Source: Cyanobacteriota bacterium (GTDB taxonomy: Bacteria; Cyanobacteriota; Cyanobacteriia; Thermostichales; Thermostichaceae). Taken from it: a DNA stretch of 64,000 nucleotides. Of the stretch, positions 10,648 to 42,216 are shown one piece after another (position 1 is the first letter of the stretch; each line of letters opens with the position of its first letter). A program made the position numbers and the translations under genes. The stretch is taken from the NCBI GenBank assembly GCA_033764955.1, contig JANRIL010000038.1, positions 1 to 64,000 of the forward strand. Direction: 5' to 3'. The notes beneath the pieces are model-generated. The model had not been told where the DNA came from and ran no database searches. It worked only from the letters and a program-made list of their open reading frames with translations.

Positions 10648-10708
10648 ATATAAGTAGAAGCATAAAGAACCTTATGCTTTCACTTCACTACAAAACGAGT
10701 ACATTCTC

Positions 10709-11050: not shown

Positions 11051-11061
11051 GAGGTGACAGC

Positions 11062-11679: not shown

Positions 11680-11685
11680 GCCCAC

Positions 11686-12918
11686 ATGGATGCACGTCGA
11701 GCGGCAGAAATGGCAGTCCGCAATTCCTATGGACAGTTGGTTGCTTATTTGGCATCTCGAACCAGAGATGTGGCGGCAGCCGAAGATGCCCTCGGCGATG
11801 CGTTCCTGATGGCTTTGAAAACCTGGCCTGAGACGGGAGTTCCCAAAAAACCTGAAGCCTGGTTAATGGTGTCAGCCCGGAATCGGTTGACTGATGCGGC
11901 ACGACGCGATCGTGTTTATGAAAATATTCTGGAAACACTGAAATCGAACAGTCTGCGATCGCAACCTGAATCCCCCAATCCTTCGGAGATATTTCCAGAC
12001 GATCGGCTTAAATTACTCTTTACTTGCGCCCATCCAGCGATCGATGCAACGATGCACACGCCATTGATGCTACAAACGGTACTCGGTCTAAATGCAGCAC
12101 AGATTGCCTCCGCATTTCTGGTTGCCCCCGCTACCATGAGCCAGCGACTGGTGAGAGCCAAGGCCAAAATTCGGGATGCGGGCATTGCGTTTGAATTGCC
12201 GGAAGTTGATGAATTGCCGAGCCGTTTAGCGGCTGTGTTAGAAGCCGTTTACGCTGCCTACACCAATGCCTGGGAAACAGTCAATGGGAGTGACCCCCGC
12301 CATCGGGGGTTGGCTGAAGAGGCAATCTGGCTGGCTCGTTTGTGTGTTCAGCTCATGCCGCAAGCACCGGAAGCACGGGGATTACTGGCACTCATGCTGT
12401 ACTGTGAAGCCCGACGCGATGCTCGTCGCAGTGCAAACGGTGCCTACATCCCTTTAACCCAGCAAGATACCCAGCTTTGGTCGCAGCCCATGATTGATGA
12501 AGCGGAATCCGAGCTTGCTCACGCCGCTACCTTCAAACAGTTGGGACGATTTCAACTGGAAGCAGCCATTCAATCGCTCCATACCCAACGTGCCGTTACT
12601 CAGCAGGTCGATTGGGAAACACTGGTGGTGTTGTATGAAGGCTTAATTCAGCTTTCGCCCACGTTTGGTGCATTCGTCAGTTATGCGGCTGCGATCGCAG
12701 AAGCCAAAGGATTACAGCAAAGTTTGGTCTATCTCAACACACTGCCAACTGAAGCTGTGAAAAACTACCAACCCTATTGGGCACTAAAAGCTCATTTATC
12801 GCAGCAGCTAGAGCAGAAAGCTGAAGCTCAGCAGGCTTATTCACGCGCGATCGGATTAACAGAAGACGCTACAGTTCGTAAATTTCTTCTCCATCAGTCT
12901 TCACTGTTGGATGAGTAA
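11686..12918 (+). CDS. ECF sigma factor, ECF42 group (C-terminal DUF6596/TPR extension)
   Basis: AAEDAL; PDDRLKLLFTCAHPA; QRLVRAKAKIRDAGI; PEARGLLALML. Confidence 0.9.
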   Translation: MDARRAAEMAVRNSYGQLVAYLASRTRDVAAAEDALGDAFLMALKTWPETGVPKKPEAWLMVSARNRLTDAARRDRVYENILETLKSNSLRSQPESPNPSEIFPDDRLKLLFTCAHPAIDATMHTPLMLQTVLGLNAAQIASAFLVAPATMSQRLVRAKAKIRDAGIAFELPEVDELPSRLAAVLEAVYAAYTNAWETVNGSDPRHRGLAEEAIWLARLCVQLMPQAPEARGLLALMLYCEARRDARRSANGAYIPLTQQDTQLWSQPMIDEAESELAHAATFKQLGRFQLEAAIQSLHTQRAVTQQVDWETLVVLYEGLIQLSPTFGAFVSYAAAIAEAKGLQQSLVYLNTLPTEAVKNYQPYWALKAHLSQQLEQKAEAQQAYSRAIGLTEDATVRKFLLHQSSLLDE

Positions 12919-17812: not shown

Positions 17813-17856
17813 GGGATCCCCCTCTAAGATCGCGGTAGTGTAAAAAACCAACTGTG

Positions 17857-18837
17857 ATGTCTCGTCATCTTGAACGACTTTTGAAACTGGATGGGGTCCT
17901 TCGCCAGATCGGACGAAAGACAACTAAGGATCTTGCAGAAACCTTAGTTGTCAGTGAACATACTATCCGTAGTGATATTGCCTTTCTCCGAGACCGTTTC
18001 CAGGCTTCTCTGGAATGGAGTCAACAAAAAGGTTTCTTCTACACAGATGCGGACTGGCGATTGCCGACCATTCCTCTCACACAAGGAGAGGTTTTTGCCC
18101 TGACGCTGGGAGCCAGGATGCTGGAGTCCTATGCCGGATCCGCCTACGCCCCTCAGTTACGGTCTGCTCTTGCCCGTTTAAGTGGGCGGATACCAGAGCA
18201 GACCTGGCTGGATTTGCAGTCACTGCTGCAGAACCGGATTTTCTTCCGGGTAGGAGCAGAGACGGCGCTGGATTCGGAGATCTGGCAGGGGTTGGAGCAA
18301 GCCTGCCAGGAATCTCGCGAAGTCCAGATCCGGTATCGCACCGCCAGCCGGGGGGATGAGATCTCCGAATGGGTGGTGGATCCCTATCTATTACACATCT
18401 ATAGGGGCACCAATCCCTACGTGATTGGCTACTGCCACCGACGGCAGGGGGTGAGGTGGTTTCGGGTAGACCGAATTTTGGCTCTGCAGTTGTTATCGGA
18501 CAAGTTTGTTGTGGATCCTACCTTCGATGCTTGGGATTACCTAGAGATGATCTTTCAGGATGAAGCGGGAGGGATCCCGCAGACAGTGGTGATTGACTTT
18601 GACTCAGTCACAGCTCCCTATATCCGAGAGCGGCGCTGGCACCCTACCCAGGAGATCAGAGAGCATGCAGATGGATCCTTGACACTGCAGATGACGGTGC
18701 GAGGAATGAATGATGTTAAGCGGTGGGTGCTGGGGTATGGCAAAGGGGCTGTGGCTAAGGATCCACCGGAGTTAGTGCAGATGGTGGAGGCAGAAATAAA
18801 GAATATGGTCTTGAACTATAGTGGGATTTCTCAATGA
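17857..18837 (+). CDS. HTH-WYL-WCX transcriptional regulator preceding the cas operon
   Basis: TIRSDI.FLRD; YVIGYCH.R..VR.FRVDRI; RWVLGYG; overlaps cas3 start. Confidence 0.92.
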   Translation: MSRHLERLLKLDGVLRQIGRKTTKDLAETLVVSEHTIRSDIAFLRDRFQASLEWSQQKGFFYTDADWRLPTIPLTQGEVFALTLGARMLESYAGSAYAPQLRSALARLSGRIPEQTWLDLQSLLQNRIFFRVGAETALDSEIWQGLEQACQESREVQIRYRTASRGDEISEWVVDPYLLHIYRGTNPYVIGYCHRRQGVRWFRVDRILALQLLSDKFVVDPTFDAWDYLEMIFQDEAGGIPQTVVIDFDSVTAPYIRERRWHPTQEIREHADGSLTLQMTVRGMNDVKRWVLGYGKGAVAKDPPELVQMVEAEIKNMVLNYSGISQ

Positions 18838-21566
18838 TGGATTCACTTTTATTGTGGGCAAAATTAGATAAACAAAAGAAGGGCTTGTTCCATCCCCCTT
18901 TGTTTCATTTATTGGATACTGCAACAGTTGCAAAGCAGCTTTTGCTAGAAGGATTACCCCTGGCCTTAATGAATAGGCTAACGAAAGGTTTGGAAATCAC
19001 TCAGGAAAGTCTCCTACGGTTTGTTCCATTTTTATGCGGTGTTCACGATCTTGGCAAGATTGCACCTGATTTTGAATTTCAAAATGACCAAGGAGTAGAA
19101 ATAGCAGTCAGATTAATGGGGAAAGAAGTTTATCAGAAGTGGCTCGACAGGAAGGAAGGGGAAAAAATACCTCATGGTACGATTACAGCCGTCACACTCC
19201 CCCAATACTTAAAGGAACTGGGTGTAGAACCTTTTCTGGCAGAAGAAATCGCTGCTATTACAGGAGGTCATCACGGAATTATTCCTCACCCTGAAGATAT
19301 TAGAGAAGCGTCTCATCGAAAATTCAATATTGGGAAAAAACAGTGGCAAGATTTTCGCAAAGAGACAATTGATGCGCTAGTCAAATACACTCAAATCAGC
19401 ACCATAGACTTTCCCAAGGTTATTGCGGCTGCCTCCAAAATTATTCTGGCTGGCTTGGTAACTCTTTCAGACTGGATAGCCTCAAATCCAGATTGGTTTC
19501 CCTACTCCAATGATCCACTTGAAGATTATGTTAAAACGCTCGATAAAAAAGTTGAAACGGCATTGAGAGAATCCGGCTGGATTGGCTGGGAGCAGCATAT
19601 AGAGCCGATCAGATTGAGGGATTTATTCAAATATATTGAGAACTTTTTGCCTCGCAACCTGCAAGAGAAGGTTGAGGAATTACTTCCGGAATTTACAGAA
19701 CAGCCTGCTCTTTTTATCATTGAAGCTCCTACAGGAGAGGGAAAAACAGAAACCGCGATCACGGTTGCTGAATGGTGTGGGACGCAATCAGGGATTGCAA
19801 AGGGAGCTTATTTTGCCCTTCCGACTCAAGCGACAAGCAATCAGCTTTATGGACGGATTCAGGAATTTTTGGAACATCGTTATCCCAACCAAACTACTCC
19901 ATTGAATTTGGTTCATAGTCATGCTCAATTGTCGGAAGACTTTAGCAAAACCATTGTTTGTCGGTTAGATCAGGTTCATGAGGAAGATGGTACTGCCCCT
20001 GGCGTGGTTGCCAGTGAATGGTTTACTTACCGGAAACGACCTCTTCTGAGTCCTTGGGGCACGGGAACCATTGACCAAGCCTTGATGGGGATTTTACGCA
20101 GTAAGCATAACTTTGTGCGGTTGCTGGGGTTGGCTGGTAAAACGGTTATTCTGGATGAGATCCATGCCTATGATGCCTACACATCAACACTCATAGAGTC
20201 TTTGCTGGAGTGGCTGGCTGCCCTTGGTTCTCCAGTGGTTGCGATGTCTGCTACCCTCTCTCAGAAGCAACGCCAAGCATTTCTAAACGCTTACAGTCGT
20301 GGATTGGGGCAATCTGCACCAGAATTGGAAGTTTGTCCTTATCCTCGTTTAACGATTTACAACCAATGTCTATCCCAACCCACGACAAGTTCGTTCGAGG
20401 TTAGTGACCTCAATGCTAACCGTAAGATTCGGCTGCAATGGATTGATGAAGAACAAATTCCTGAAATTCTTGATACCGAGCTAGTCAATGGGGGAACTGC
20501 GGCAGTTTTACGCACGTTAGTGGGTTGGGCACAGCAAACCTATGAAGAATTGATTCCTCCCTCATTTAGACAACATGAGCGGCTTTTGTTCCATAGTCGT
20601 TTTCTACACTTTGATCGCAGAAAAATTGAAGAAGATTGCTTGTCAACCTACGGGAAAAAGGTGGATCACACCAAACCTCGCCCCCGGTCTGTTTGTGTCG
20701 CGACTCAGGTGATTGAACAAAGTCTGGATTTAGACTTTGATTTCATGATTTCAGACCTTGCTCCTATCGATCTGCTCATTCAGCGGGTTGGACGGATTTG
20801 GAGGCACAAGCGGGTGCGTCCACCTCGGCTCACTGAACCAACGCTTTACCTGATTAGCCCAAATTTGGATAAGGGCACTCCAGATTTTGACTCTACCGTG
20901 GAGCAATTTATTTATGAACGTCATTTATTGTTGCGAACCTGGGATGCGTTGGAATCACTCAAAGATGGCCAAGGTGATTGTTATCTGGAACTGATGAAGT
21001 GGGTTGATGCACACCATCGGCAAATTGACTGGCTCATTGAACAGGTCTATAACACCTCTCGTTCACCTTTAAAAATGCTTGACTCTCAAGAAGAAAGTGC
21101 TTGGGAGTGCAGCCATCAACAATGGAAAACTCAAGTTGAGGCTGAGCAAGACCTTGCAAAGAAGCGCGACTTACCGCATGTCAATTGTTTAGTTGAAGCT
21201 TATGAACTTACACATCGTCCCGAAAATATGGAGACAGCAACCCGACTAACACCGCTCAATGTCACGGTAGTTCTTGCAGAGGAAACAACAGAGGGCTTAA
21301 TTCTGCCTCGGACTGGGCGACGAATTTATCCCCATCGCAAGCCTAGTAAAGCGGAAGTCAAAGATATTCTCGATCATTCAGTCAACTTGACCAAACAGGG
21401 ACTGGTACAGCAATTGCTGAGATTTCCTCCAGAAGAGGGTTGGACAGAAAATAGTCTACTCCGCAACCTCAAGTTGTTGCGTTTACACAATCGCTCTTAT
21501 CGAGGCATCGCTGGTTGGCAAGTACAACTTGATGATGCTTTGGGTGTCATTACATCTCGCCTCTGA
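18834..21566 (+). CDS. cas3: CRISPR-associated HD nuclease/helicase Cas3
   Basis: HLLD, HDLGK, GHHG, SDWIAS; APTGEGKT; DEIH; SAT; QRVGR. Confidence 0.96.
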   Translation: MMDSLLLWAKLDKQKKGLFHPPLFHLLDTATVAKQLLLEGLPLALMNRLTKGLEITQESLLRFVPFLCGVHDLGKIAPDFEFQNDQGVEIAVRLMGKEVYQKWLDRKEGEKIPHGTITAVTLPQYLKELGVEPFLAEEIAAITGGHHGIIPHPEDIREASHRKFNIGKKQWQDFRKETIDALVKYTQISTIDFPKVIAAASKIILAGLVTLSDWIASNPDWFPYSNDPLEDYVKTLDKKVETALRESGWIGWEQHIEPIRLRDLFKYIENFLPRNLQEKVEELLPEFTEQPALFIIEAPTGEGKTETAITVAEWCGTQSGIAKGAYFALPTQATSNQLYGRIQEFLEHRYPNQTTPLNLVHSHAQLSEDFSKTIVCRLDQVHEEDGTAPGVVASEWFTYRKRPLLSPWGTGTIDQALMGILRSKHNFVRLLGLAGKTVILDEIHAYDAYTSTLIESLLEWLAALGSPVVAMSATLSQKQRQAFLNAYSRGLGQSAPELEVCPYPRLTIYNQCLSQPTTSSFEVSDLNANRKIRLQWIDEEQIPEILDTELVNGGTAAVLRTLVGWAQQTYEELIPPSFRQHERLLFHSRFLHFDRRKIEEDCLSTYGKKVDHTKPRPRSVCVATQVIEQSLDLDFDFMISDLAPIDLLIQRVGRIWRHKRVRPPRLTEPTLYLISPNLDKGTPDFDSTVEQFIYERHLLLRTWDALESLKDGQGDCYLELMKWVDAHHRQIDWLIEQVYNTSRSPLKMLDSQEESAWECSHQQWKTQVEAEQDLAKKRDLPHVNCLVEAYELTHRPENMETATRLTPLNVTVVLAEETTEGLILPRTGRRIYPHRKPSKAEVKDILDHSVNLTKQGLVQQLLRFPPEEGWTENSLLRNLKLLRLHNRSYRGIAGWQVQLDDALGVITSRL

Positions 21567-21607
21567 AATACAAATCAACTCAAATTTCGTTTAGGATCGA
21601 TTGCTCT

Positions 21608-23200
21608 ATGACTTCAGCTACTCCTTCTGTGCAAACTCAACGAACCAGCTTTTCATTGCTCACAGAACCCTGGATTCCAGTCGTCTTTCAGTCGTTGGAA
21701 TACGATATGGTTTCTCTAAAAGATTTATTTCTGCGTTGGGATGACCTCAAAACAGTGCAAGCGGCCAATCCACCTCGCACGATCGCCCTGTGGCGCTGGT
21801 TGATTGCCTTTACTCAATGGTCAATTCAAGGCCCAGCCACCAAAGAGGATTGGGCAGCACTTTGGAATGATCAGGAACTTTGGCAAAGGATTGTTGAAAA
21901 GTTGGAAACGGTGAGCGATCGCCTCGATTTACTTCATCCTAAATATCCTTTTGCTCAATGCCCAGATTTGCTGAAAGAAGCCAATGGAAAACCACCCACT
22001 CCAGCAGCTAAATTGCTCTACCACGATAAGGATACAGGTTTACTTTGGACTCGTTTCAGTCAATGGCAACCTGCATCCCTCACCTATGCAGAAGCAACAC
22101 AAGAACTTTTGCGTCTGCTTTGTGTAGATTTGGGAGGGACAAAATCAGATAAAGATAAAAAGGAAAGATCAGCCCAGTCTGGCTCTTGCATGATGGCTCG
22201 AATTGTCATGCCCTTGGGAGGAACTGTCAAAGAAACCCTTTTGCTAAATCTGCATGAATATAACTCTTCCCCAACTACTTCTCAACGAACTCCTGATTTA
22301 CCCTTATGGGAACAGGGAGAAATTCAAAAAGAATTTCAAAAAGTAAATGGATTGCTCGATTATCTCACGTTTCCTGGAAGGCGAGCATTACTCATTCATG
22401 ATGATGAAAAAGTAGTAGGGGTATATATTTATAGGGGAGAAGAATTATCCATCAAAGAACCTACACCTGCTCAAAAATCAATTATCGAAGCAAATGTATC
22501 CTGGGAGTTTTGGCAAGCATACGTTAACAATAAACCGTTGAACTTGGATGTGCATAAGGCATCTTGGCGAGATGCCGAAGCACTACTACATCCCACTTCT
22601 GATAAGAATCAGAAACCCCGCATCTTTGACTGGTTGGTGAAATGTCGCAAGACAAAATTTGTTCCAGATCCATTACCAGTACAAGTTATGGGATTTGCCC
22701 ATGAAAATCAGAAGCAAGGAAAGCCCTTGCAATGGGTTCACGACACAATGACAATTCCTCAAATTTACTTGGATTCTGGGGAGGCATATCATGCTTTAGT
22801 TCGAGCCTTGAAATATGCAGAAGCAGTCGGAGAACTCTTTAGTGCTAAAACCTATGCCCCTGTTGCTGATGCATTAAATCTATCCAAGCCAAAAGGGAAA
22901 AAAGATAACGACTGGACAAGGTTTATAAAAAATGTTTCATCAATTAGTTCTAGCTATTGGAGTGCATTAGATGCTGAATTTCAGCAATTCATGTTTGATT
23001 TGACAGAAGACGAAGAGGTTGATGAAGATGATGATGAGATTACCTATGGAGGTAAAACGATTCCGGTATGGAAAGACAAGCTGAGAACGATCGCAACAGA
23101 TTTCTATGAGCAGAGTTTATCCGGTGTTTCCAGTTATGAAGCGAAGGCTAGGGGACTCAATGCTTGGCACAAAGAACTTCACAAAGTTTTGGAGAAGTAG
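21608..23200 (+). CDS. cas8e: Type I-E Cascade large subunit Cas8e/Cse1
   Basis: FSLLTEPWIPV; LDLLHP.YPF.Q; DLGG.K; YW..L; position in operon. Confidence 0.88.
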   Translation: MTSATPSVQTQRTSFSLLTEPWIPVVFQSLEYDMVSLKDLFLRWDDLKTVQAANPPRTIALWRWLIAFTQWSIQGPATKEDWAALWNDQELWQRIVEKLETVSDRLDLLHPKYPFAQCPDLLKEANGKPPTPAAKLLYHDKDTGLLWTRFSQWQPASLTYAEATQELLRLLCVDLGGTKSDKDKKERSAQSGSCMMARIVMPLGGTVKETLLLNLHEYNSSPTTSQRTPDLPLWEQGEIQKEFQKVNGLLDYLTFPGRRALLIHDDEKVVGVYIYRGEELSIKEPTPAQKSIIEANVSWEFWQAYVNNKPLNLDVHKASWRDAEALLHPTSDKNQKPRIFDWLVKCRKTKFVPDPLPVQVMGFAHENQKQGKPLQWVHDTMTIPQIYLDSGEAYHALVRALKYAEAVGELFSAKTYAPVADALNLSKPKGKKDNDWTRFIKNVSSISSSYWSALDAEFQQFMFDLTEDEEVDEDDDEITYGGKTIPVWKDKLRTIATDFYEQSLSGVSSYEAKARGLNAWHKELHKVLEK

Positions 23201-23202
23201 TA

Positions 23203-23730
23203 ATGACTGTGACTGAAGATAAGGAGAAAGTCTCTCCGGAGAGGCAGTTTATCAATGAAGTTTGGGAGCGTATTGAGGGCGATCGCGGTGCCATTGCCAC
23301 TCTCAGCCGTTGCTTAAATCGACAATCCTATTACCAACGGCAGGCAGCTCAGTATGTTTATCCCTATTTGCCTGATGAAATTCGCAAGTATCAAAGTGTA
23401 GTCGATCGCTATGTATTTGTAGCCGCTTTGATGGCATCCAATCATCAGCAAGATCCTAAAGAGGCTGAGCAGGGGATGAGTTTTGGTGGGGTATGTCGCC
23501 TTCTCAAGCAGAAACTTGGTGACAACTCGGGTGGGTTGGATCGTCGCTTCCAAGTTTTGCTCAATGCAGACGGGGAAGAGGTTTACCGCTATATCGAAAT
23601 GCTGGCTCCTCTGTTGCGTCAATATCAAGTTCCTTGTGATTGGGCAAAACTACTCGAAGACCTGAATTGGTGGGATTACGAGAACGAAAGTGTTCGCCTA
23701 CGTTGGGCTAGAGACTTTTACCGAGAGTAG
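23203..23730 (+). CDS. cse2: Type I-E small subunit Cas11/Cse2
   Basis: SFG; RRF..LL; DW.KL..DL.WW; RWARDFY. Confidence 0.9.
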   Translation: MTVTEDKEKVSPERQFINEVWERIEGDRGAIATLSRCLNRQSYYQRQAAQYVYPYLPDEIRKYQSVVDRYVFVAALMASNHQQDPKEAEQGMSFGGVCRLLKQKLGDNSGGLDRRFQVLLNADGEEVYRYIEMLAPLLRQYQVPCDWAKLLEDLNWWDYENESVRLRWARDFYRE

Positions 23731-23778
23731 GGTTATTTGCTCAATCGTCCATCAATCTTTAATTTAAGGAGAAAATCC

Positions 23779-25320
23779 ATGGCTGTTTTTCTAGAAGTTC
23801 ATTTGCTGCAATCCACTCCCCCATCCAACATGAACCGGGATCAAAACGGTGCCCCCAAAACGGCTTATTTCGGGGGGATGGAACGGCTACGAGTCAGTTC
23901 TCAGTGTTGGAAGCGGGCAATGCGGCAGCACTATAAAGACACGTTACCTGATGATCACAAAACCTATCGCGATCGTGCTTGGGCGAAGGAATTGGCTAAA
24001 CGCCTCAACCAAAAAGGATTTGATGGTGATCTGAAGGTGGATGAGTCTTCCACTTCGGCTGTGCTGCCAGTGTCGCTGCGAGTGGCTTGGATGTTGTTGA
24101 GTGCCTTGGGTGTCAAACCCAACAAGGGCAACTACGAAGCAGGGATTGTAGACACATTGTTGTTTTTGGGTGAGACAGAGATTCGTCAAATGCTCAAGTT
24201 GGCTGAATCTCACAAAGAATTGCTAATTCGAGTGGCGCAAAATCCACCCAAAGTAGAAAAGAAATCCAAAGGGACGGCGAAAAAACCAAAAGCACAGGAT
24301 ACCGACGAGACACCAGTCGAAGACAAAGTTCCAGAAGTCAGCTATCAATTGCCAGGAACACCGATCAATGGAGGTTTGGGCGGAAGTTACCAGAACAGTC
24401 CCCTAGAAAAGTTGGTGAGTGAAGCAGAGTTCAAAGCTCTTAAGAGCCTGTGTGATGGCATTCAGGGTGTTCTCTACGATAAAAAGAAAAGTCACATTCA
24501 GTCTGTGCCGGGGGATGTGGCTCTCTTCGGTCGGATGCTGGCCTCTTTGCCTGTGGCGAGTGTGGATGCTGCTGTCAGCGTTGCCCATGCGATTTCAGCG
24601 AATACCATCAAACGCGAATTTGACTACTGGACAGCCGCTGGGGATTTTGAGAAGGCGGATAGTGATCAGGGTAAGGGAGGGGAGCATATTGGCGATCGCC
24701 CCTTCTCTAGTGGTGTGTTCTATCGTTATAGCTGCCTGGATCTGGCTCAATTGGTTGAGAATATGGGCGAAAAATTTAAAAATGATCTGGGCCTCATTGT
24801 TGAACACTATCTGGACGCTTTTCTTTACAGTCGTCCCACAGGTTACAGCAAGCAGTTTGGTCATGACACCGTGCCCTTTGCTGGCATGTTTGTGATCCGC
24901 CACTCCCAACCGATTTCATTGGTTCAAGCCTTTGAAACACCGATCAAACCAAAGCCAGACGAATCCATCAGCCAGAAATCCTGGCAAAAAGCAGTTCAGC
25001 ACTGGAATGAAATCCAGCAAGCTCATGGCAAACGGCTACCCGTAGAGGCTGTCCATGTTTTCAGCGAAGCTAGTTTTGCTGAAGTTAGCGATGACAAGAA
25101 ATCGTCAATCGATAAACTTTCTAAAGAATTGCCTGATCGCGCCATCATCAATCTTCTGAAGCTGAAGGCAAAAAATAAGCAAGAATCACCCAACCCTCAA
25201 TCATCTAATCCGTTAGAAGAGCAAAAAGAAGATACTCAACAGAAAGTCTTCTTGCATGTGGACTTCAGCGATGCCATTGAAGCGGCTGTGGCGGATCTAC
25301 TCAAACATCGGGAGGGTTAA
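23779..25320 (+). CDS. cas7e: Type I-E Cas7/Cse4, enlarged (about 513 aa)
   Basis: NMNRDQNGAPKTA.FGG..R.RVSSQ.WKR; DVALFGRM; VAHAIS; DYWTA; FYRY. Confidence 0.92.
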   Translation: MAVFLEVHLLQSTPPSNMNRDQNGAPKTAYFGGMERLRVSSQCWKRAMRQHYKDTLPDDHKTYRDRAWAKELAKRLNQKGFDGDLKVDESSTSAVLPVSLRVAWMLLSALGVKPNKGNYEAGIVDTLLFLGETEIRQMLKLAESHKELLIRVAQNPPKVEKKSKGTAKKPKAQDTDETPVEDKVPEVSYQLPGTPINGGLGGSYQNSPLEKLVSEAEFKALKSLCDGIQGVLYDKKKSHIQSVPGDVALFGRMLASLPVASVDAAVSVAHAISANTIKREFDYWTAAGDFEKADSDQGKGGEHIGDRPFSSGVFYRYSCLDLAQLVENMGEKFKNDLGLIVEHYLDAFLYSRPTGYSKQFGHDTVPFAGMFVIRHSQPISLVQAFETPIKPKPDESISQKSWQKAVQHWNEIQQAHGKRLPVEAVHVFSEASFAEVSDDKKSSIDKLSKELPDRAIINLLKLKAKNKQESPNPQSSNPLEEQKEDTQQKVFLHVDFSDAIEAAVADLLKHREG

Positions 25321-25322
25321 TC

Positions 25323-25982
25323 ATGCCAACCCTTTTACTGCGGTTAGCAGGTCCCCTCCAATCCTGGGGGCGTGGCTCTCGGTTTGACTCTCGCGATACA
25401 GATACGGTTCCAACCCAATCCGGCGTGATTGGGTTAATTGCCTCAGCAATGGGTATTAAACGCTATAACCAGGCGAGGTTAGCAGAAATTGCTCGGTTAC
25501 ATATGGGAGTTTTGATTGAGCGGGAAGGCAAACTGTTGGTTGACTATCACACCGCAATGGGAGCAGTCAAAGCTGATGGAACATCTGACGAAAAGGAGAC
25601 AATTCAGTCCCAACGTCAGTACTTATGCGATGCAGAGTTTCTGGTTGGCTTAGAAAGCAATGATGAAAAGCTACTCAGAGACATCGAACATCATCTTTGT
25701 TTCCCGACCTGGCAACCCTTTCTAGGGCGTAAATCTTGCCCACCCAGCAAGCCCATTTTTGTGGATTTGGTTCCCACAAATTTGCAAGAAACCTTTGACT
25801 CACCTACCACTTTGCAAAATTGTGGAGTTAAACCGGGGAAATATCGCTTAGTGATCCAATCCGATAATCCACAAGCTGCCCTGCGTCTAGACGTTCCTGT
25901 TGACTTTGAACAGCGGATTTTTTCAGTTCGTACCGTGATCACTCAGCCTGTCGAGGTGCCCGATGTATCTGAGCAAAATTGA
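25323..25982 (+). CDS. cas5e: Type I-E Cas5
   Basis: LRLAGPLQSWG; PT.SGV.G; DYHT; YLCDA.F; FLGRKSCPPS. Confidence 0.95.
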   Translation: MPTLLLRLAGPLQSWGRGSRFDSRDTDTVPTQSGVIGLIASAMGIKRYNQARLAEIARLHMGVLIEREGKLLVDYHTAMGAVKADGTSDEKETIQSQRQYLCDAEFLVGLESNDEKLLRDIEHHLCFPTWQPFLGRKSCPPSKPIFVDLVPTNLQETFDSPTTLQNCGVKPGKYRLVIQSDNPQAALRLDVPVDFEQRIFSVRTVITQPVEVPDVSEQN

Positions 25983-26640
25983 TTTAGACCTAACAAAATC
26001 GGGAGTTCGTAAGGATTTAGGTAACCATCATCAGTTGCATCAGAAGGTGATGATGGGCTTTCCTGACCAACGTGAATCAACAGATCTAACCCCTCAGGAG
26101 AACAATGAATGTCGCAAGAATTGGCAAATTCTCTTCCGACTCGAAGGGGCGACGCTGTTGGTGCAATCTGGGGTTAAACCCAATTGGAGTCGATTGCCAA
26201 CAGGGTATACCCCTGATGGGGAGATTCGAGAACTGGATTTTCAAACCATCCAGTCTGGACAACGCTTGAAGTTTCGCTTAGTTGCCAATCCAGTTCAGCA
26301 GCGCACGCACAAACGAACAGACGAGGATGGAAATCCTATTCTCAAAGCTGATGGATCAGGCAAACCCCAGCAAAAGACCTGGCGGCGTTTGATTACCAAA
26401 GAAAATGACCAAATTCAATGGCTAGTTAATCATCTCAAGGGAGCCAAACTGGAGGAGTGCTACATTACTGCACCCAGCAAAATCAATCGTGACCACCAAT
26501 CATCCATTATTCGTACAGTGCAATTTGATGGTGTGTTGCAAGTTGTCAATCCATCTGAATTTCTGGATGTGTTAACGAATGGTATTGGTCGCGGTCGTTC
26601 CTATGGGTGTGGTCTACTGTCCATAGCCAGGATTCTGTAA
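25963..26640 (+). CDS. cas6e: Type I-E Cas6e/Cse3
   Basis: H..VM..FP; FRLVANP; FDG.L.V; GIGRGRSYGCGLL. Confidence 0.95.
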   Translation: MYLSKIDLDLTKSGVRKDLGNHHQLHQKVMMGFPDQRESTDLTPQENNECRKNWQILFRLEGATLLVQSGVKPNWSRLPTGYTPDGEIRELDFQTIQSGQRLKFRLVANPVQQRTHKRTDEDGNPILKADGSGKPQQKTWRRLITKENDQIQWLVNHLKGAKLEECYITAPSKINRDHQSSIIRTVQFDGVLQVVNPSEFLDVLTNGIGRGRSYGCGLLSIARIL

Positions 26641-26670
26641 GCGAAACATTTCTTGATTAGGAAATAAACT

Positions 26671-27594
26671 ATGTCTTCACTACGTCGGATCCCGAAGGTT
26701 CGGGATAGCTTGAGCTTCGTTTATTTTGACCGTTGTCGTATAGAGCAGGATTCTAAAGCTATTGCCGTCTATCAAGAAAATGCCAAATATGTTATTCCCT
26801 GTGCCAGTTTAACGACCCTACTGCTTGGCCCTGGCAGTGTGATTACCCATGCTGCTATCAAAGCACTGGCTGATAACGCTTGTGCTGTCCAATGGGTTGG
26901 AGAAGACAGCCTACGTTTTTACTCTCGGGGAGTCAGTAGTTCGAGCAGTGTAGAACGACTTTATCATCAAACTCGGCTTTGGTCGGATCCAGTTCAACAT
27001 CTCAAAGTGGTTCGACGGATGTATGAGTTTCGATTCCAGGATCCTCTCAAAGAAGGGTTAACTCTGGAACAAATTCGGGGCTTGGAAGGGGTTAGGGTTC
27101 GTACTACCTATAGCCGTATGAGCAAAGCGACAGGAGTGGAATGGAAAGGCCGTGATTATAAGTTAAGTAACTGGGATAATTCAGATCCGATCAATCGCAC
27201 TCTTTCAAAGGCTAACACTTGTCTTTACGCGGTATGTCAAGCGGCTCTAAATGCTGTGGGCTATTCTTCTGCTCTGGGATTTATTCATACCGGAAAGTCA
27301 CTTTCTTTTGTGTATGATATCGCAGATCTTTACAAAACGGAAACTACAATTCCAGCAGCATTTGAGGCGGTAGCTGAGTTTGGACAGACCGCAGAGTCCA
27401 AGGTTCGTCATAAGTGTCGGGAAAAGTTTGGGGATCTTCGCTTAATGCAGCGCATTATCGAGGATGTGGATCGGATTTTGCAAATTGGGGAGGTGAATGA
27501 ATCAGCTTTACCCGTAGGTCAATTGTGGGATCCTGACCAAGGCTTGGTTGAAGGTGGCCAGAGTTGGGGTGAAGAACCTACCCAGGAGGAGTGA
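26671..27594 (+). CDS. cas1: Type I-E Cas1
   Basis: LLLGPG..ITHAA; RGLEG.RVR; LGFIHTGK.LSFVYDIADLYK. Confidence 0.96.
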   Translation: MSSLRRIPKVRDSLSFVYFDRCRIEQDSKAIAVYQENAKYVIPCASLTTLLLGPGSVITHAAIKALADNACAVQWVGEDSLRFYSRGVSSSSSVERLYHQTRLWSDPVQHLKVVRRMYEFRFQDPLKEGLTLEQIRGLEGVRVRTTYSRMSKATGVEWKGRDYKLSNWDNSDPINRTLSKANTCLYAVCQAALNAVGYSSALGFIHTGKSLSFVYDIADLYKTETTIPAAFEAVAEFGQTAESKVRHKCREKFGDLRLMQRIIEDVDRILQIGEVNESALPVGQLWDPDQGLVEGGQSWGEEPTQEE

Positions 27595-27595
27595 G

Positions 27596-27868
27596 ATGGT
27601 GGTGTTTATCTTACAAAATGTCGCTCCCAGCCTACGGGGTGAATTGAGTCGGTGGCTCTTTGAGGTCAAAGCTGGTGTGTTTACTGGGCGGGTTTCGGCT
27701 TTGGTGAGAGATGAGTTGTGGGAGATGGTTACCAAAAAGATCAAGGACGGATCCGCTGTCATGGTTTACACCACTAACTCTGAACAAGGGTTTGCTGCCC
27801 GAATTTTGGGGGATCCTACTCGGACTCTTGTAGACATAGAAGGAGTACTGATTGTCAAAACAGCCTGA
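27596..27868 (+). CDS. cas2: Type I-E Cas2 (no DnaQ fusion)
   Basis: LRGELSRWLFEV.AGVFTG.VSA.VRD.LW; EQGF; VD.EG. Confidence 0.95.
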   Translation: MVVFILQNVAPSLRGELSRWLFEVKAGVFTGRVSALVRDELWEMVTKKIKDGSAVMVYTTNSEQGFAARILGDPTRTLVDIEGVLIVKTA

Positions 27869-27887
27869 TATCAGCAAAAGTGGAAGT

Positions 27888-29223
27888 GTTGTCCCCACAC
27901 CCGTGGGGGTGAACCGCCGATACCAGAGAGAGCCGTGTGTCCGATTGACGTTGTCCCCACACCCGTGGGGGTGAACCGGTGCTGACGCAGCCTCCTCTGT
28001 GAGCCGAAATCGTTGTCCCCACACCCGTGGGGGTGAACCGACATACTTGGGCTGGGATATTGCGCGCCGTCGGGTTGTCCCCACACCCGTGGGGGTGAAC
28101 CGCCGTTAACAAAGTCTTAGGAGGGCGGTAATGGGGTTGTCCCCACACCCGTGGGGGTGAACCGGGATCCCCGGTTGGGATTCGTTTGGGCGTGGGGGTT
28201 GTCCCCACACCCGTGGGGGTGAACCGTATTTCGGGCGCAAGAGTTGCCGTTTTACCCACGTTGTCCCCACACCCGTGGGGGTGAACCGATCCGCTGGGAC
28301 ACCTGCTTGATTTAAAGCGGGAGTTGTCCCCACACCCGTGGGGGTGAACCGGCAAAATCAGCAAATACGCCTTGTCCAGCGGATGGTTGTCCCCACACCC
28401 GTGGGGGTGAACCGTAAGCGTGGCCTGATACTTGGCCATTGTGCTGGTAGTTGTCCCCACACCCGTGGGGGTGAACCGCCGGATAGAGAAATGAAAACAG
28501 AACTAATAAAAGTTGTCCCCACACCCGTGGGGGTGAACCGCCGGGATCCCGACTAGCCTTGCCCCGCCTCGCCGTTGTCCCCACACCCGTGGGGGTGAAC
28601 CAGTTTCGTGGGCAAACGAAATTCGTTTCAATATTCGTTGTCCCCACACCCGTGGGGGTGAACCGTCTCTTTGCCGTGCTGTCACGGGTTGATAGCTGGT
28701 TGTCCCCACACCCGTGGGGGTGAACCGCAAACCGTCAGCCCTTTATCTGCCTTCAAAAAGTTGTCCCCACACCCGTGGGGGTGAACCGAAGCATCGCGAT
28801 CGACAGACTGTCTAACCGAAGTTGTCCCCACACCCGTGGGGGTGAACCGCTCAACAGGGACAACGGGTTTTGTTGGTGGATCTCGTTGTCCCCACACCCG
28901 TGGGGGTGAACCGAAGTAGGCGGGATTATTCCCGTGGTCTACTGGCGTTGTCCCCACACCCGTGGGGGTGAACCGGAAAAATTAGCGATAAAGGAAAGTC
29001 GTATTGCGTTGTCCCCACACCCGTGGGGGTGAACCGGCTACCGTTAGTAATTAGCCGTCCCCTAACGATCGTTGTCCCCACACCCGTGGGGGTGAACCGA
29101 GGTCGCTGTTGCGAATAATCCTGACACCGATCGTTGTCCCCACACCCGTGGGGGTGAACCGATTCGGGAAATCGGTATCAGGTAAGGATCCCGTGTTGTC
29201 CCCACACCCGTGGGGGTGAACCG
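27888..29223 (+). CRISPR. Type I-E array: 22 repeats GTTGTCCCCACACCCGTGGGGGTGAACCG, 21 spacers of 32-35 nt
   Basis: Counted directly; repeat 12 ends ...GAACCA; possible degenerate terminal unit after 29256. Confidence 0.98.
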
Positions 29224-33874: not shown

Positions 33875-34258
33875 CTACAAGACGCTAACTAAGTAGGCAC
33901 GAACAGCTGCATCTACTGTAGCAATGGTCAAACCGTTTTGTAATGCCTGACAGATGAGCATTCTGTCAAACGGATCACGATGCAATGGTGGCAGTTTAGG
34001 CAGTTGAATCACACTGCTTTCATCAAGAGCAAGGCTGGCAATTTGATGAAGGTCACGTTGCTTAGGTAAATATATTTCGGGAGGTTCTGGCAGGGGTAAC
34101 TTGCCCAACTGGTACTTGACAATTGCTTCCCAGATTGAAACTGAACTCAGATAGGCTTCGTTGTCTGGATCACGAATCGCATCCCGAACGTCCGTTGATA
34201 ACTGAATGTCACCGCTAATGAACCATAAGAAAATATGCGTATCTAGCAAAATTCTCAT
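33875..34258 (-). CDS. PIN/VapC toxin
   Basis: ILLDTHIFLW; S.WE..K; HRDPFDRML..QA. Confidence 0.92.
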   Translation of the reverse strand: MRILLDTHIFLWFISGDIQLSTDVRDAIRDPDNEAYLSSVSIWEAIVKYQLGKLPLPEPPEIYLPKQRDLHQIASLALDESSVIQLPKLPPLHRDPFDRMLICQALQNGLTIATVDAAVRAYLVSVL

Positions 34259-34491
34259 TTGCCCTCGAATGCGTTGAGCAGATCTTCCGGTAAAGAAGCG
34301 TCGAAATCGTCTGGAACAGTAAACTCGCCTGCACATAAACCAAATGGTCGTAATTGCTTACTATTGACAACAGGTTTAAGTTCAGCAATCGGCTTGTTAG
34401 ATCTAAAAATGACAAGCGTCTCGCCCGCCTCTACTTGATTCAGATACTTAAGAGGATCGCGCTGAATATCATCAACCGTTACATTCAACAT
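34255..34491 (-). CDS. Phd/YefM-family antitoxin
   Basis: L..VEAGE..VI.R..KPIAEL.P; RPFGL..G...PDDFD..LP. Confidence 0.88.
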   Translation of the reverse strand: MLNVTVDDIQRDPLKYLNQVEAGETLVIFRSNKPIAELKPVVNSKQLRPFGLCAGEFTVPDDFDASLPEDLLNAFEGK

Positions 34492-34547: not shown

Positions 34548-35039
34548 TCAAAGCTTCTCTAAGTAAAGAGTTTTGATCTGAAATGCAACTTTTCTAGCCT
34601 GAATCAAGGGTATTGGATAGCCAATTGTGTTGTACCCTTTATTGGCTACACTTCTTTCTTTGAGAGACTTCTGTAATTCCCAAACCAAAGCCCTTAGCTT
34701 TCCTGGTTTGAAGGCAATAATTTCCTGCTCTGGTATGAGAAAGATCCAGTAATCGGCTTGTGAACTCCACCCCCATCCTGGAATAAGCTCCTTGTCATTT
34801 GAAACAGTTTCAAAGAAAAGGTTGCCTGTTCGTTTAGCAGCCATGTCAAATTTGTACTCAATCGTGATGACTGATCCATCTAGACGTGTAACGACTCGAT
34901 CAATCCCTGATTGTTGGTACTTCAGATCTTCAGAAACATCCAGCACCTTATAAGTAGAGGATAACCATTGGTCTAGGAATGTTTCGCCTTCCTGCCCAAC
35001 TTTGCGCTGAGTGTGAAAATCGTACTGTCTAGTTTGCAT
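34548..35039 (-). CDS. PD-(D/E)xK-like nuclease
   Basis: G..GE..L; QQSGID; IEYK.D; TGNLFFE; GW...SQADY. Confidence 0.7.
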   Translation of the reverse strand: MQTRQYDFHTQRKVGQEGETFLDQWLSSTYKVLDVSEDLKYQQSGIDRVVTRLDGSVITIEYKFDMAAKRTGNLFFETVSNDKELIPGWGWSSQADYWIFLIPEQEIIAFKPGKLRALVWELQKSLKERSVANKGYNTIGYPIPLIQARKVAFQIKTLYLEKL

Positions 35040-35897
35040 AGATGTAAGGGATGTAGAGTTGAACATCATCATTGCCTTCTCGCCGTATGGGAATCCCTGC
35101 CCACCGTGTCACCCAATTTACTAACGCTCTCAAGGAACTAGCTCGACGAGGATTTGTGGTTCCTCCGCAATCACCCAAACTCACCGCAGAAATGATCTCT
35201 TGGATTAACTCTTTGGTAAGTTCTTTGTCACCACGAGTTGTTTCTTCAATGATCATTTGAATCGGGTAAAACCCAACAAAGCTTCTGCTAGAAGACGCTC
35301 ACGAGTCTCTGAATCATTGCTCTGAGCAATTCGTTGACCTCGCTCCGTCAAAACATAAGTGCTTGTAGATTGCTTTTCAATTTGACACCGACTAGCAAGA
35401 CCAATCTCAATAATAGGTCGCCCAAGATAGTCACCTCTCCTTGCCAGATCTTTATCTTTCTTTGCACCACTACCAAATGCAATACCTAAATCTTTCGGAG
35501 TGTTGATTCCACAATGAATTAATTCAACAGTTCTGATAAATTTATGCGGATCACCGATTTGGGGAATGTAGACGGGTTGATCCTCACCACTGCGAAGATC
35601 TTGCTCTAGAGCAGTTCTCCAATCGATTGAGTGAGACATCTGTTTGAATTCATAGAATCTGATCTCTTTCCTGGCAACATCGACAGTATAAGTAATCTGG
35701 AAGGTTCGCCCTGTGATTTCATAGACTAATTCTGTAATACCTGGCTTTATTCCACAGCTAGCTCCTTTGACTTCACCACATTGTTTGAGAGTCTCTAGAA
35801 CAGGAGAAAGTTCTTGCTCCAATTCAGCATCCCAAAATGCGTTTCTATCGAAAAACGTTGATTTAACTTGATAATCGAAATACGTAAACCTGTACAC
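35029..35897 (-). pseudogene. RelE/ParE-like N-terminus plus wHTH-type C-terminus, split by a -1 frameshift at 35268-35274
   Basis: ORFs 35253-35897 and 35029-35256 join as ...LLGFYPIQMIIE with one added T; motifs YIPQ, DY, GL, LT.RG, T..RRASSL. Confidence 0.65.
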
Positions 35898-35918: not shown

Positions 35919-36314
35919 TCAGATCTGAATTTCAGAAGGAAGAAATAAAACTTTATCGGCATCACCGATCAGCGGTAGTGAAAGGTGATGAGTGAAACGA
36001 GGCGATACGAATGCAACAACTCGTCTTTTGTGAAACGTTAAATAGATACAGTCCGTACCTCCCAGAAGCTTTTCCCATGCTTCGGTTAACTGGTCCCGGA
36101 ACTCAGTCAGAGGAACTTCTTCACTTTTCTGAACACTAATTTCGCTGTCTCCAGAATTAAGTTCATCAATATCTTGAAGAGGAAGCAGGAAAGCTGCCAC
36201 TTCTCCATAATGAGTACACACAATGCGTAAGTTACCCGACTGAACCTGTCGCCTAAGTTTTGGCAGTTTGACCCGTAACTCTGACATTGGGATTTGCTTA
36301 AAACGTTTGTTCAT
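35919..36314 (-). CDS. Protein with two tandem Phd/YefM-like DNA-binding domains
   Basis: IPMSELRVKL..L...V......IV.THYGEVAAFLLP repeated as VPLTEFRDQL.......IYLTFHKRRVVAFVSP. Confidence 0.75.
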   Translation of the reverse strand: MNKRFKQIPMSELRVKLPKLRRQVQSGNLRIVCTHYGEVAAFLLPLQDIDELNSGDSEISVQKSEEVPLTEFRDQLTEAWEKLLGGTDCIYLTFHKRRVVAFVSPRFTHHLSLPLIGDADKVLFLPSEIQI

Positions 36315-39752: not shown

Positions 39753-40076
39753 AGATCTCATCTCAGAAAGAATGACAGATGGTTCTGAAGGGAGGGCAAC
39801 CGTAGAAGCGGTTTTAGGATGGTGGCAGCAGAAAATAAGGAAGCCTACGTCGTCAAGTCGTGAGGAAGGATCCACCGCCCCATTAGGCTAGGTTTTGCCT
39901 CAGAGTTACCGTCAAATTATTGCTGCGATGCTACCGAGGCTGGATGGCTTTCGGCTGTCAAGTAGAATACAGACTAGCTTGCAAAAAGCTGAAATTCTCC
40001 TGAGCAGACCATCAACACAACGGATCCAGCCAATCAGGTGAGCCAGGAGATCTCACTAGTGCAATCGCTGGGGGTG

Positions 40077-41082
40077 GGTGGGAGAGTTTTTCGGGCGCAA
40101 GAGTTGCCCTTCTACCCGCCGCATGGGTTTGGCTGTCGCTGTCGGACAATATCTCTCACCGAGCGCTAGGTGCAGGAACGGGGGTTGACGGTGGTTAGGG
40201 GATTTTGTCCGTTATCAAGACCCAGGCTCCGGCAAGGAGACACTGATCCGACTGGAGGCTGAGCGAGGGTTTGACGGGATCCCTGGTCAGAGTCGGCCAG
40301 AGCAACGGGCGCAGATGATGCAGCAGATTTTACGGCGATTGGATCCGGTGGATGCGGCGTGGGTGCGGCAGGAGATGGCGGCGATTGATCAGAGAATTGG
40401 GGAGCGTCGAGAGGAAGTTGGTTCGTTTCAGCTTATTACTTCCGATATTTTTTTTGCCGCTCTGGGAGATTGGCTGCAACAACTTCGTTCGATCGACCAA
40501 CGATTACTAAATGCCAACCAGCTTAACCAGGTGCTTGATTCGGAGTGGGCTGTTACCGAATTACTGCAAGCAGATTCCTTAAAGGTTCGTGGAGTGATCG
40601 ATCATCAGGGAGTTTTGCAGTCTGCGGCATCTGTCGAAGCGGATGCAGGGGCATTGCGGATTCAGTGGCTTGCGACCGCCCCTCAAAATTTAATCTATTT
40701 AGAAAATCCAGATCGTCTTGCAGGTGCTAGTCGAGCGCTAATGTTGTATTTGGTTAAAGAAAGTCAGGATTTAGGGTTTCAGGGCAGGATAGAATTGGTA
40801 TCACTAGAAACTTCGATCGAGTTTTACCGTAAATTGGGATTTTCCCAGCGAGGTGGATTGCTTTCTCTCGATCCTGAAAACGCCCAAAGCCTGCTTGATC
40901 AATACGGAGACACGGTAATGTTTGCCAAATTTGATACAGAAGAGCTTGATCGTTTGGAAGCTGAGTCTGGAGCGGTTTTGGCAGTGCCAGATCAAGATGC
41001 TTTGCGACGGAGGGATGACTATAAGGCAAAGCGCATGGCGGAAATCGAGACCCAAAAACAGGAATCTGCCACTGATCAATAA
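40077..41082 (+). pseudogene. Degraded MuF (gpF) head-morphogenesis gene with GNAT-like C-terminal domain (open part 40315-41082)
   Basis: Manual translation GRVFRAQELPFYPPHGFGCRC, TAG at 40167, frameshift near 40200 into the 40315 frame; C-terminal LATAP...G...LM...FYRKLGF. Confidence 0.7.
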
Positions 41083-41559
41083 ATGGTCAAGCTCATCACC
41101 ACCGTCACTGATACTCGGCTCCAGCAACTTTTTGACCGGATCGACAATACCCTACGCAGCCCTCAGCCCCTCTACAAAGCCTGGGCTAATCACCTTGAAT
41201 CCCGTGTGGTCAATGCTTTCAAGCAAGAAACCTCTCCCGCAGGTCAAGCATGGCCGGAACTGAAGCCTGCCACCATCCGCCGCAAAAACCGGAACTCTTC
41301 CAGCCTCAACAAAAAGCTGCGAGACACCGGAACTCTCTATGACTCGATAGCCGCTCGTGCGCTGCCCGATGGTGGGGTCGTTGGCACCAATCAACGAGTG
41401 GGATCCTACAGTCTGGGTGCAATCCATCAATACGGCGCACCACAGCGAAATATCCCCTCCAGGCCATTTTTGCCTGTCGATCTTAATGGTGATCTGCTCT
41501 CTCAGAATGTTGAAGAATTGATCCAGTTGACTCAAGACTGGCTGAATTTGCAGCCTTAA
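41083..41559 (+). CDS. Phage virion morphogenesis protein (Mu gpG / P2 gpS-like)
   Basis: F.QE..P.G..WPELKPAT; LRDTG.L..SI; VGTN; AIHQYG; IPSRPFL. Confidence 0.9.
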   Translation: MVKLITTVTDTRLQQLFDRIDNTLRSPQPLYKAWANHLESRVVNAFKQETSPAGQAWPELKPATIRRKNRNSSSLNKKLRDTGTLYDSIAARALPDGGVVGTNQRVGSYSLGAIHQYGAPQRNIPSRPFLPVDLNGDLLSQNVEELIQLTQDWLNLQP

Positions 41560-42216
41560 TCGAATTAATTTCAGCTCAGAAGAAAAGGATCAAAAATATC
41601 CAAATACGCCGAAAAAAGAGACTGAAAAATCTCTAGGAACAGCCTATAGGATAAATATAGTGGATGTGGACTGATGAATTGACTATCTGTGACAGAAAAA
41701 GAGACTCCACAGGCTTCGCAAAACCGAATACTAGCAACAAATCTTAGACTTGCATCTCCTTTCACTACATTTCTAGGGAAAAAAGATATGGATTAACAAA
41801 GAATTTAAGCAAAAAAAGAAGAGGGAAAATCTTGCAGCTCAAAAATTCATGGGAGAAATTGAGGAAGATGAAAGCGAGTTCGATCTCTCAAGAGATCTTA
41901 CGGGAGCGCCTGAGGAGGGAGAGATCTGACCACAACCTGCCGACGCCAAGGGGTGGCGGATCCTTTTCGACCCACACTAGGATAACCACCATGAACCTAG
42001 ACTCTAGCCAGATTCGTAGGTGGAGAGATCCCTCCCCTCATTACTGGGTTGGGGTTGGGCAATGATCAACAGGTGACTGGCAGGGCATCATCGCTGGTGT
42101 CAAAGTTGCCTGAGTGGAAATAGATAGCCCATAACGTTTCATATGCAGACCAGATAACCGTGAGGGGTCAATTCCTCATTTCCATCGGATTCCAGTAGTA
42201 AGGAAAAAGGCGGTTT

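Follow-up and report, generated by a model that had tools for sequence, protein, structure and literature searches.

The window analysed here is a stretch of 64,000 nucleotides (nt) from a member of the Cyanobacteriota (assembly GCA_033764955.1, contig JANRIL010000038.1). It carries a CRISPR (short palindromic repeats, clustered and regularly interspaced) array beside a set of type I-E cas genes, and 11.8 kb from the array it carries a short piece of phage-derived DNA, which is matched imperfectly by one of the spacers of the array, spacer 6. The features that enter into this match are listed here in window coordinates.

27888..29223, + strand: CRISPR array of 22 repeats of 29 nt and 21 spacers, located by a regular-expression scan of the window and the genome
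28227..28259, + strand: spacer 6, 33 nt
40068..40194, + strand: 5'-truncated pseudogene fragment, the C-terminal part of a MuF domain (BLASTP, tblastn, PF04233 and phrog_220)
40084..40086, + strand: GAG, the 5' flank of the match, in the position of the protospacer adjacent motif (PAM) by E. coli I-E convention
40087..40119, + strand: imperfect protospacer, 29/33 identical to spacer 6
40195..41082, + strand: open frame of 295 codons, a linker followed by a GNAT-like domain
40315-41082, + strand: open reading frame (ORF) starting with ATG, 255 amino acids (aa), variable GNAT-like domain (leads from the ESM Atlas)
41083..41559, + strand: Mu G-like virion morphogenesis gene (MuG), intact, 158 aa (PF05069, E 1.6e-16; phrog_26, E 1e-26)

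An ungapped comparison on the same strand reproduced the match described in the sequence-only reading of the window, namely 29 identities in 33 positions between spacer 6 and 40087-40119, with mismatches at spacer positions 2, 23, 26 and 32 and GAG as the flank. Identity is 88% over the full length, and 93% over the 29 nt of the local BLAST alignment. The genome assembly (3.8 Mb in 48 contigs, 89% complete) would be expected to contain about 2e-5 matches of at least 29/33 by chance, counting all 21 spacers and both strands, and the BLAST score of spacer 6 (42.1 bits) was not attained by any of 1050 shuffled spacers, the best of which scored 36.2. When all spacers were compared with the assembly by BLAST, no better match to spacer 6 than 40087-40119 was found. 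Spacer 6 is a self-targeting spacer, in that it matches DNA of the same genome outside any array.

The protospacer is part of a reading frame, and the differences fall within it in a very particular way. Spacer 6, together with the last G of the preceding repeat, encodes VFRAQELPFYP, which are the same 11 residues as in the frame of the remnant (tblastn and comparison of frames). All four differences are therefore synonymous and lie at third-codon positions, as had been noticed earlier. The probability that 4/4 differences would fall on the 11 third-codon positions among the 33 is 0.008.

The orientation of the match was assigned from the repeat. Read on the + strand, the repeat consists of 5 nt, a 6-nt stem, a 4-nt loop, the second 6-nt stem and a final 8 nt, ending in CCG. 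In E. coli, the I-E repeat has a hairpin followed by an 8-nt 5' handle. The repeat here has this I-E layout on the + strand, which identifies the + strand as the strand of the CRISPR RNA (crRNA) and places the PAM 5' of the protospacer. No Rfam CRISPR-DR family matched the repeat at its gathering score. The array is highly regular: 21 of the 22 repeats are identical, both terminal repeats are perfect, and repeat 12 (28574-28602) alone deviates, its final G being replaced by A. Spacers are 32-35 nt long, with 33 the commonest length. The scan of the genome found no second array, so that 27888-29223 is the sole array in the 3.8-Mb assembly.

Relatives of the phage-derived DNA were obtained using an alignment of two MuG copies as query, which led to two viral loci and one genome locus; a single MuG query against genome contigs gave 0/269 confirmed stretches. 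They comprise a provirus in IMG/VR (L014), that same element as found in a metagenome-assembled genome of Tildeniella torsiva (L016), and another viral contig (L015). Their genes follow the order terminase, Mu-type portal (Portal_Mu, E 6.6e-94), MuF and MuG, and the MuF genes match PF04233 with E 7.8e-12 and 1.6e-9. The window has a MuF stub followed by MuG, in the gene order of these intact Mu-like relatives. In L014, a 348-aa pentapeptide-repeat membrane protein (10683-11729) comes after MuG, so that a module boundary falls at the end of MuG there too.

The target itself corresponds to roughly the last 33 codons of the MuF (phage head morphogenesis) domain. The frame across the protospacer reads ...GRVFRAQELPFYPPHGFGCRCRTISLTER, and then stops. 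By BLASTP the fragment is identical in 16 of 33 positions to residues 144-176 of the L014 MuF (E 2e-10). The PF04233 hit in L014 covers residues 59-169 (E 7.8e-12), so the fragment aligns at the end of the domain. This agrees with the earlier assignment of the target to MuF, with 40068-40166 forming the C-terminal end of the domain. The fragment also matches phrog_220 ("minor head protein and DNA pilot") with E 5e-4, and it is the sole match in the genome to PF04233 (Phage_Mu_F), at model positions 86-112 of 112; the score of 12 bits (E 0.88) is below the curated cut-off of 29.6, as for a fragment and not a member protein. The tblastn homology to the L014 MuF spans 40068-40244, with the strongly conserved part beginning at about 40080. 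MuF similarity had been proposed to begin about 10 bp upstream of the target, and it does begin close by, at about 40068, but this is 16 nt before the PAM by BLASTP and tblastn. The domain body is missing, there is an in-frame TAG at 40167-40169 where the paralogues described below have CAG, and there is a 16-nt gap after 40194 relative to the copy on contig C42. Taken together, these three features mark the window copy of MuF as a pseudogene.

The first 72 codons of the open frame at 40195-41082 are a linker which is common to several paralogous cassettes in this genome (81-83% to the copies on C42 and C34 by tblastn). For the rest of the frame, the ESM Atlas gave leads to GNAT-like proteins (score 0.94, template modelling (TM) 0.5-0.62), and there was no Pfam hit for the ORF at 40315-41082. 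The GNAT-like domain was probably once a C-terminal effector extension of MuF. The MuG proteins of the window and of the L014/L016 prophage are 51% identical.

The phage origin of this DNA, which had been read as a prophage remnant, is borne out by MuF followed by MuG; it is a cassette of 1.5 kb, of which the genome has four, and not a large decayed prophage. Self-comparison of the genome showed that each cassette consists of a MuF 3' stub, the conserved 72-residue linker, a variable effector-like middle and MuG.

40068-41559, + strand: window cassette, with the GNAT-like middle
C42:85604-89930 (L008): C42 cassette, with a middle of a 184-aa ORF and a 556-aa P-loop protein (phrog_13260, E 5e-124)
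C34:48795-50292 (L010): C34 cassette, with a middle of a PBECR1-like domain (Pfam E 8.5e-5, below the curated cut-off) and a small ORF
C34:69950-70980 (L011): fourth cassette, more decayed

Window segments 40105-40411 and 41079-41553 recur in the C42 and C34 cassettes at 78-80% nucleotide identity. A Cas8a-like identity suggested by PADLOC for the 556-aa cargo protein (E 0.004) was regarded as noise. Of 58 ORFs from the related Mu-like prophages (2 × 20 kb), only four match anything in this genome: MuF, the MuG of either prophage, and a pentapeptide-repeat protein and a 91-aa ORF whose matches are elsewhere in the chromosome. The Mu protease family gave no hit in the genome, and neither did the Mu portal family, for which the control genomes likewise yielded nothing.

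Codon constraint acts on pseudogenes no more than on spacers. Purely synonymous differences between the two therefore imply that the source of the spacer and the remnant diverged as working genes, and a related phage is thereby favoured over this locus as the donor. The third-position divergence of 4/11 is comparable in size to the synonymous differences that separate the paralogous cassettes, for which the proportion of synonymous differences (pS) is 0.37-0.52, the synonymous distance (dS) 0.5-0.9 and the ratio of nonsynonymous to synonymous distance (dN/dS) 0.10-0.23. In addition, the C42 paralogue retains protospacer positions 19-27, where it is identical to spacer 6 at 9/9 positions, including the spacer alleles at 23 and 26; these two alleles thus exist within the cassette family.

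We therefore regard spacer 6, with a probability of about three in four, as an immune memory that was obtained from a functional phage, a relative within the same family, and that cross-reacts imperfectly with the remnant. An origin in a related active phage had also been suggested from the window itself, and the purely synonymous character of the differences supports it, with the source phage being deduced from the sequences. In such a history, a family of Mu-like temperate phages would have visited this cyanobacterial lineage repeatedly, and the resident I-E Cas1-Cas2 would have taken spacer 6 from a functional MuF (head morphogenesis/DNA-pilot) gene, at its conserved 3' end. The phage that supplied the spacer would have been related, not identical, to the one that left 40068-41559, and the remnant would be hit by cross-reaction alone, through the 29/33 match with GAG in the PAM position. 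By analogy with E. coli, the match may be tolerated in that four base-pairing positions, seed position 2 among them, are mismatched, which would weaken the binding of Cascade; a second factor may be that the target is dispensable DNA.

The rules established for E. coli I-E offer some guidance on this tolerance. GAG belongs to the group of interfering PAMs (PMC6568314), which confirms the earlier statement that this flank is tolerated as a PAM by the E. coli system. A single mismatch in seed positions 1-8 markedly lowers activity, and mismatches after position 24 have little effect (PMC6897959). None of the mismatches at 2, 23, 26 and 32 is at the flipped-out sixth position. The remnant thus combines a flank that is functional in E. 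coli with a mismatch at seed position 2; these are E. coli rules, and may not be those of this system. By the same analogy, binding of Cascade to the remnant is likely to be reduced by the mismatches. Interference in E. coli tolerates changes in seed and PAM more than had been thought, in a spacer-dependent manner, and one or two seed mismatches still permit interference or priming for some spacers (PMC4678831). The earlier proposal that the mismatch at position 2 may be what averts autoimmunity is a weak one.

The source phage was sought in a range of databases. VFRAQELPFYP in any synonymous spelling, written as IUPAC patterns, occurred at 0 places in IMG/VR, GTDB species genomes and JGI metagenome contigs. 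The whole array was compared by blastn with 50,697 INPHARED phage records, which gave no match, and with PLSDB, which gave 13 records, every one through similarity of the repeat to other I-E arrays. Compared with the records that contain L014, L015 and L016, the array gave nothing significant (best E 1.9). The conserved 72-residue linker (40195-40410) was present in 0/60 related genomes and had no hit among the longer proteins of a 5.8-billion-protein index; 0/225 candidate stretches were confirmed in metagenome contigs and 0/98 in viral contigs.

Several points weigh against reading spacer 6 as the memory of a related phage. Its source was not found, and the description of that source as a related phage is drawn from codon positions within 33 nt. 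At 89% completeness of the assembly, a better self-match could lie in unassembled DNA. The combination of a GAG PAM with the seed mismatches tolerated in E. coli means, as far as that comparison carries, that tolerance by mismatch alone is not assured, and the system could instead be silent or inhibited. Furthermore, just two protospacers inform the PAM of this system, that of spacer 6, with GAG, and that of spacer 16, with CCG (see below).

Other explanations of the match were weighed against the same evidence. Given an expectation of about 2e-5 matches of this quality and 0/1050 shuffles reaching the score, chance similarity has a negligible probability. A further explanation is that spacer 6 was acquired from this very locus or its intact ancestor, the four differences having arisen by later mutation. 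Naive adaptation from chromosomal DNA does occur, and in this array spacer 16 copies part of a chromosomal gene almost perfectly. Against this, all four differences are synonymous (p 0.008) in the absence of codon constraint on either pseudogene or spacer, and two of the spacer 6 alleles are found in a different paralogue, which makes self-acquisition quite improbable. A non-immune role was also considered, in which Cascade carrying crRNA 6 binds the site without cleavage and modulates expression of the GNAT-like gene and MuG. The imperfect match, with a plausible PAM, is just upstream of the intact ORFs at 40315-41559. Cross-reaction with a relative would by default be expected to give the same pattern, and we hold a regulatory use, which nothing supports directly, to be very improbable.

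The last explanation concerns the shape of the cassettes, and adds to an origin of spacer 6 in a related phage without excluding it. Spacer 6, or its perfectly matching targets in resident prophages or in incoming DNA of this family, would have recruited Cas3, so that PAM-proximal DNA was degraded and the PAM-distal part was kept. In window coordinates, the left ends of the cassettes are at about 40068-40080 (window), 40105 (C42), 40120-40131 (C34) and 40315 (fourth). Relative to protospacer position 1, the first three are at about -19, +19, and +34 to +45, so that three left ends at unlinked loci fall within about 65 nt around the spacer 6 protospacer. The C42 end lies inside the protospacer, and the PAM and seed have been lost there. 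Host ORFs end 80-90 bp upstream of the C42 and C34 junctions, showing that these truncations are real. Divergence of the copies under purifying selection (dS 0.5-0.9, dN/dS 0.10-0.23) suggests separate acquisitions and not the copying of a single dead remnant, and no other gene of the phage family was found in the genome (4/58 prophage ORFs with any match). The missing side here is the PAM-proximal one, which is the direction of Cas3 deletion for I-E (PMC6897959). Against truncation by CRISPR, the right ends of the cassettes also coincide, all lying a few nt at most from the stop of MuG, where no spacer has an exact run of at least 12 nt. Some other process must then fix at least one boundary, and may set both. 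The direction of the loss is not independent evidence either, since any remnant that retains the MuF 3' end is necessarily without its upstream side; the window copy still has its protospacer; and the number of loci is three or four. That self-targeting drove the deletion, as had been proposed for the window copy, is thus in keeping with three left ends near the protospacer, but with right ends that coincide without a spacer another cause is at least as likely. We regard it as unlikely that CRISPR directed these truncations, and about as unlikely that the four cassettes are natural scars of I-E immunity. In that case, whenever a Mu-like phage of this family entered the cell or became a lysogen, Cascade with spacer 6 or a predecessor would have bound the conserved site in MuF, Cas3 would have erased the PAM-proximal side, and the cell would have kept the PAM-distal effector or immunity cargo.

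Further inspection of the boundaries gave little. No convincing direct or inverted repeats were found around the cassette, and apart from spacer 6 no spacer has a partial protospacer (an exact run of at least 12 nt) at the cassette edges. The gene pgi is present in 22/22 family genomes (66-72% identity), but the genes that neighbour it in the window are beside it in 0/21 fetched loci. The pgi flank is unconserved across the 22 family members, and the pre-insertion state is not recoverable by synteny. The cassette boundaries are unexplained.

Within the cassettes there is also an offset of frame. On C34 (about 48870-48885, L010) and C42 (about 85695-85705, L008), the linker/effector frame is offset by -1 from the MuF frame at a run of G. 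In L014, whose MuF is intact, a single frame runs through without such an offset. A stop in the MuF frame shortly past the G run is in the same place in all cassette copies, and at this site (40190-40201) the window copy has its 16-nt gap. The offset is either a candidate programmed -1 frameshift joining the effector to some of the MuF, a shared defect, or a homopolymer error.

The CRISPR system to which spacer 6 belongs has the following genes.

17854..18837, + strand: transcription regulator with WYL domain, upstream of cas3 (Pfam WYL, E 1.3e-18; WCX, E 5.8e-17)
18834..27868, + strand: complete type I-E cas operon, all ORFs uninterrupted and with Pfam matches near full model length
18834-21566, + strand: cas3 (Cas3_HD, E 1.6e-43, positions 1-207 of 207)
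21608-23200, + strand: cse1 (CRISPR_Cse1, E 1.8e-80)
23164-23730, + strand: cse2 (CRISPR_Cse2, E 2.4e-29)
23737-25320, + strand: cas7 (Cas_CT1975, E 1.5e-84)
25323-25982, + strand: cas5 (Cas_Cas5d, E 8.7e-44)
25963-26640, + strand: cas6e (CRISPR_assoc, E 2.3e-44)
26671-27594, + strand: cas1 (Cas_Cas1, E 6.1e-16)
27548-27868, + strand: cas2 (Cas_Cas2CT1978, E 4.4e-33)

By Pfam, the Cascade and Cas3 set for I-E is present, namely Cas3 (HD nuclease and helicase), Cse1, Cse2, Cas7, Cas5 and Cas6e, together with an adaptation pair of I-E type, Cas1 and Cas2, beside the array. Cas7 has 527 aa, and the Pfam CT1975 model of 361 positions is stretched across residues 19-461, which implies sizeable insertions. 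There are just 19 nt between the cas2 stop and the first repeat (27866-27888), and any leader would have to overlap cas2. Signs that the system may be active are indirect and limited to the intact ORFs and the 21/22 identical repeats. No public sequencing runs are listed for 39900-41600. The host genome is cyanobacterial, with psaA and psaB on contig C7. The Photo_RC family (psbA/psbD) was not found in the 89%-complete assembly, which is likely to be due to an assembly gap.

The comparison of all spacers with the genome, which had been put forward as a check, revealed a self-match stronger than that of spacer 6. Spacer 16 (28850-28884, 35 nt) matches C42:118458-118491 (L009, 8458-8491) at 34/35 positions, with only the last base mismatched. 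The target is inside a gene for a ParA-like ATPase (AAA_31, E 5e-31), which is surrounded by what appear from their sequences to be housekeeping genes (rtcB, glgC and accC). On its 5' side the target is flanked by ACCG, which is also how the repeat ends. In E. coli I-E, CCG at the PAM is a self signal derived from the repeat, giving neither interference nor priming (PMC4678831, PMC6568314). If the E. coli rule holds here, the CCG flank would explain why spacer 16 is tolerated. A paralogous gene at C42:57146 (- strand) matches spacer 16 at 25/35 positions, and also has CCG before it.

The other 20 spacers were compared with the window remnant, its paralogues and the L014-L016 records, and none of them matched (in the remnant and its paralogues, no exact run of at least 12 nt); elsewhere on contig C11 they gave chance-level matches of 13-17 nt alone. 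The earlier suggestion that neighbouring spacers were primed against the same phage is not upheld by this count of 0/20. Spacer 7 (28289-28322) has a borderline match to C30:45416-45449 (L013, 3416-3449), near a large SNF2-type helicase gene. The match is 24/34 overall and 20/21 in the 3' part, at 34.2 bits, a score reached by 3/1050 shuffles.

A frequent motif was observed in both the genome and the array. GGGATCCC occurs in 4915 copies, or 75 times the mononucleotide expectation, and GGATCC in 11709 copies, 12 times expectation, with 113 sites in the window. GGGATCCC is a highly iterated palindrome distinct from GCGATCGC, which is at 1.7 times expectation. GGATCC is inside 3/21 spacers (5, 11 and 21), indicating that its density in the DNA from which the array was drawn is host-like.

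The interval from the array to the remnant contains a PIN-domain ORF and a Phd/YefM-like antitoxin ORF (33875-34336 and 35919-36314), and two ORFs without family hits (34548-35072 and 35253-35897). These four may form a small toxin-antitoxin or defence islet.

The finding is an ordinary self-targeting spacer against prophage-derived DNA, which is a known class: such spacers have been catalogued in about a fifth of CRISPR-bearing bacteria (PMC7708048). As in that survey, a chromosomal spacer hits phage-derived DNA of the same genome and the cas genes are not degraded. Target mutation is named there as a route to tolerance, and the local alignment of spacer 6 (93% over 29 nt) would pass its filter of >90%. 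Unlike the cases in the survey, the full-length identity is 88%, the differences are ancestral synonymous divergence and not escape mutations, and the target is a 1.5-kb dead cassette rather than a prophage, with no primed build-up of self-targeting spacers. Heterologous autoimmunity (Chen, Mayer and Balasubramanian, bioRxiv 10.1101/2021.01.04.425308) shares the trait of a foreign-derived spacer which cross-reacts with the host; that work treats chance cross-reactivity statistically, whereas here the phage and the remnant are homologous.

The system resembles I-E of E. coli, as described in PMC6568314, PMC4678831 and PMC6897959, in its set of cas genes, its 29-nt repeat ending in CCG and its similar spacer length. 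It differs in that the host is a cyanobacterium, in Cas7, which at 527 aa is longer than the Pfam model, and in the 19-nt gap between cas2 and the first repeat. Self-targeting by a type I-F system in Pectobacterium has reportedly led to loss of an island. The unidirectional long-range deletions made by Cascade-Cas3 (Morisaka et al. 2019, PMC6897959) are PAM-proximal, as is the part that the cassettes lack, and many of them start <500 bp from the PAM. Compared with that study, there is here a static pattern in one genome, in which the second boundary of each cassette is unexplained. MuF-anchored effector ('polyvalent') proteins (Iyer et al. 2017, PMC5512222) have MuF followed by variable C-terminal effectors, as in the cassettes; compared with those proteins, this genome has 3' stubs alone, and no MuF body, portal or other virion gene was found in it.

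Spacer 6 is of value as a clean case whose mismatches lend themselves to being read as ancestral synonymous divergence, which separates the memory of a relative from an escape mutation. The context is more interesting, since several independently diverged phage stubs end at a site recognised by the spacer, and the same array has a near-perfect spacer against a chromosomal ParA-like gene with a repeat-like CCG flank. If the cassettes were indeed products of I-E immunity, CRISPR would not only kill prophages but would also leave behind defined, and possibly useful, fragments. Given close strains or phage, this genome could show whether I-E systems shape the natural decay of prophages, and it could also show whether the CCG self signal of E. 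coli works in cyanobacteria.

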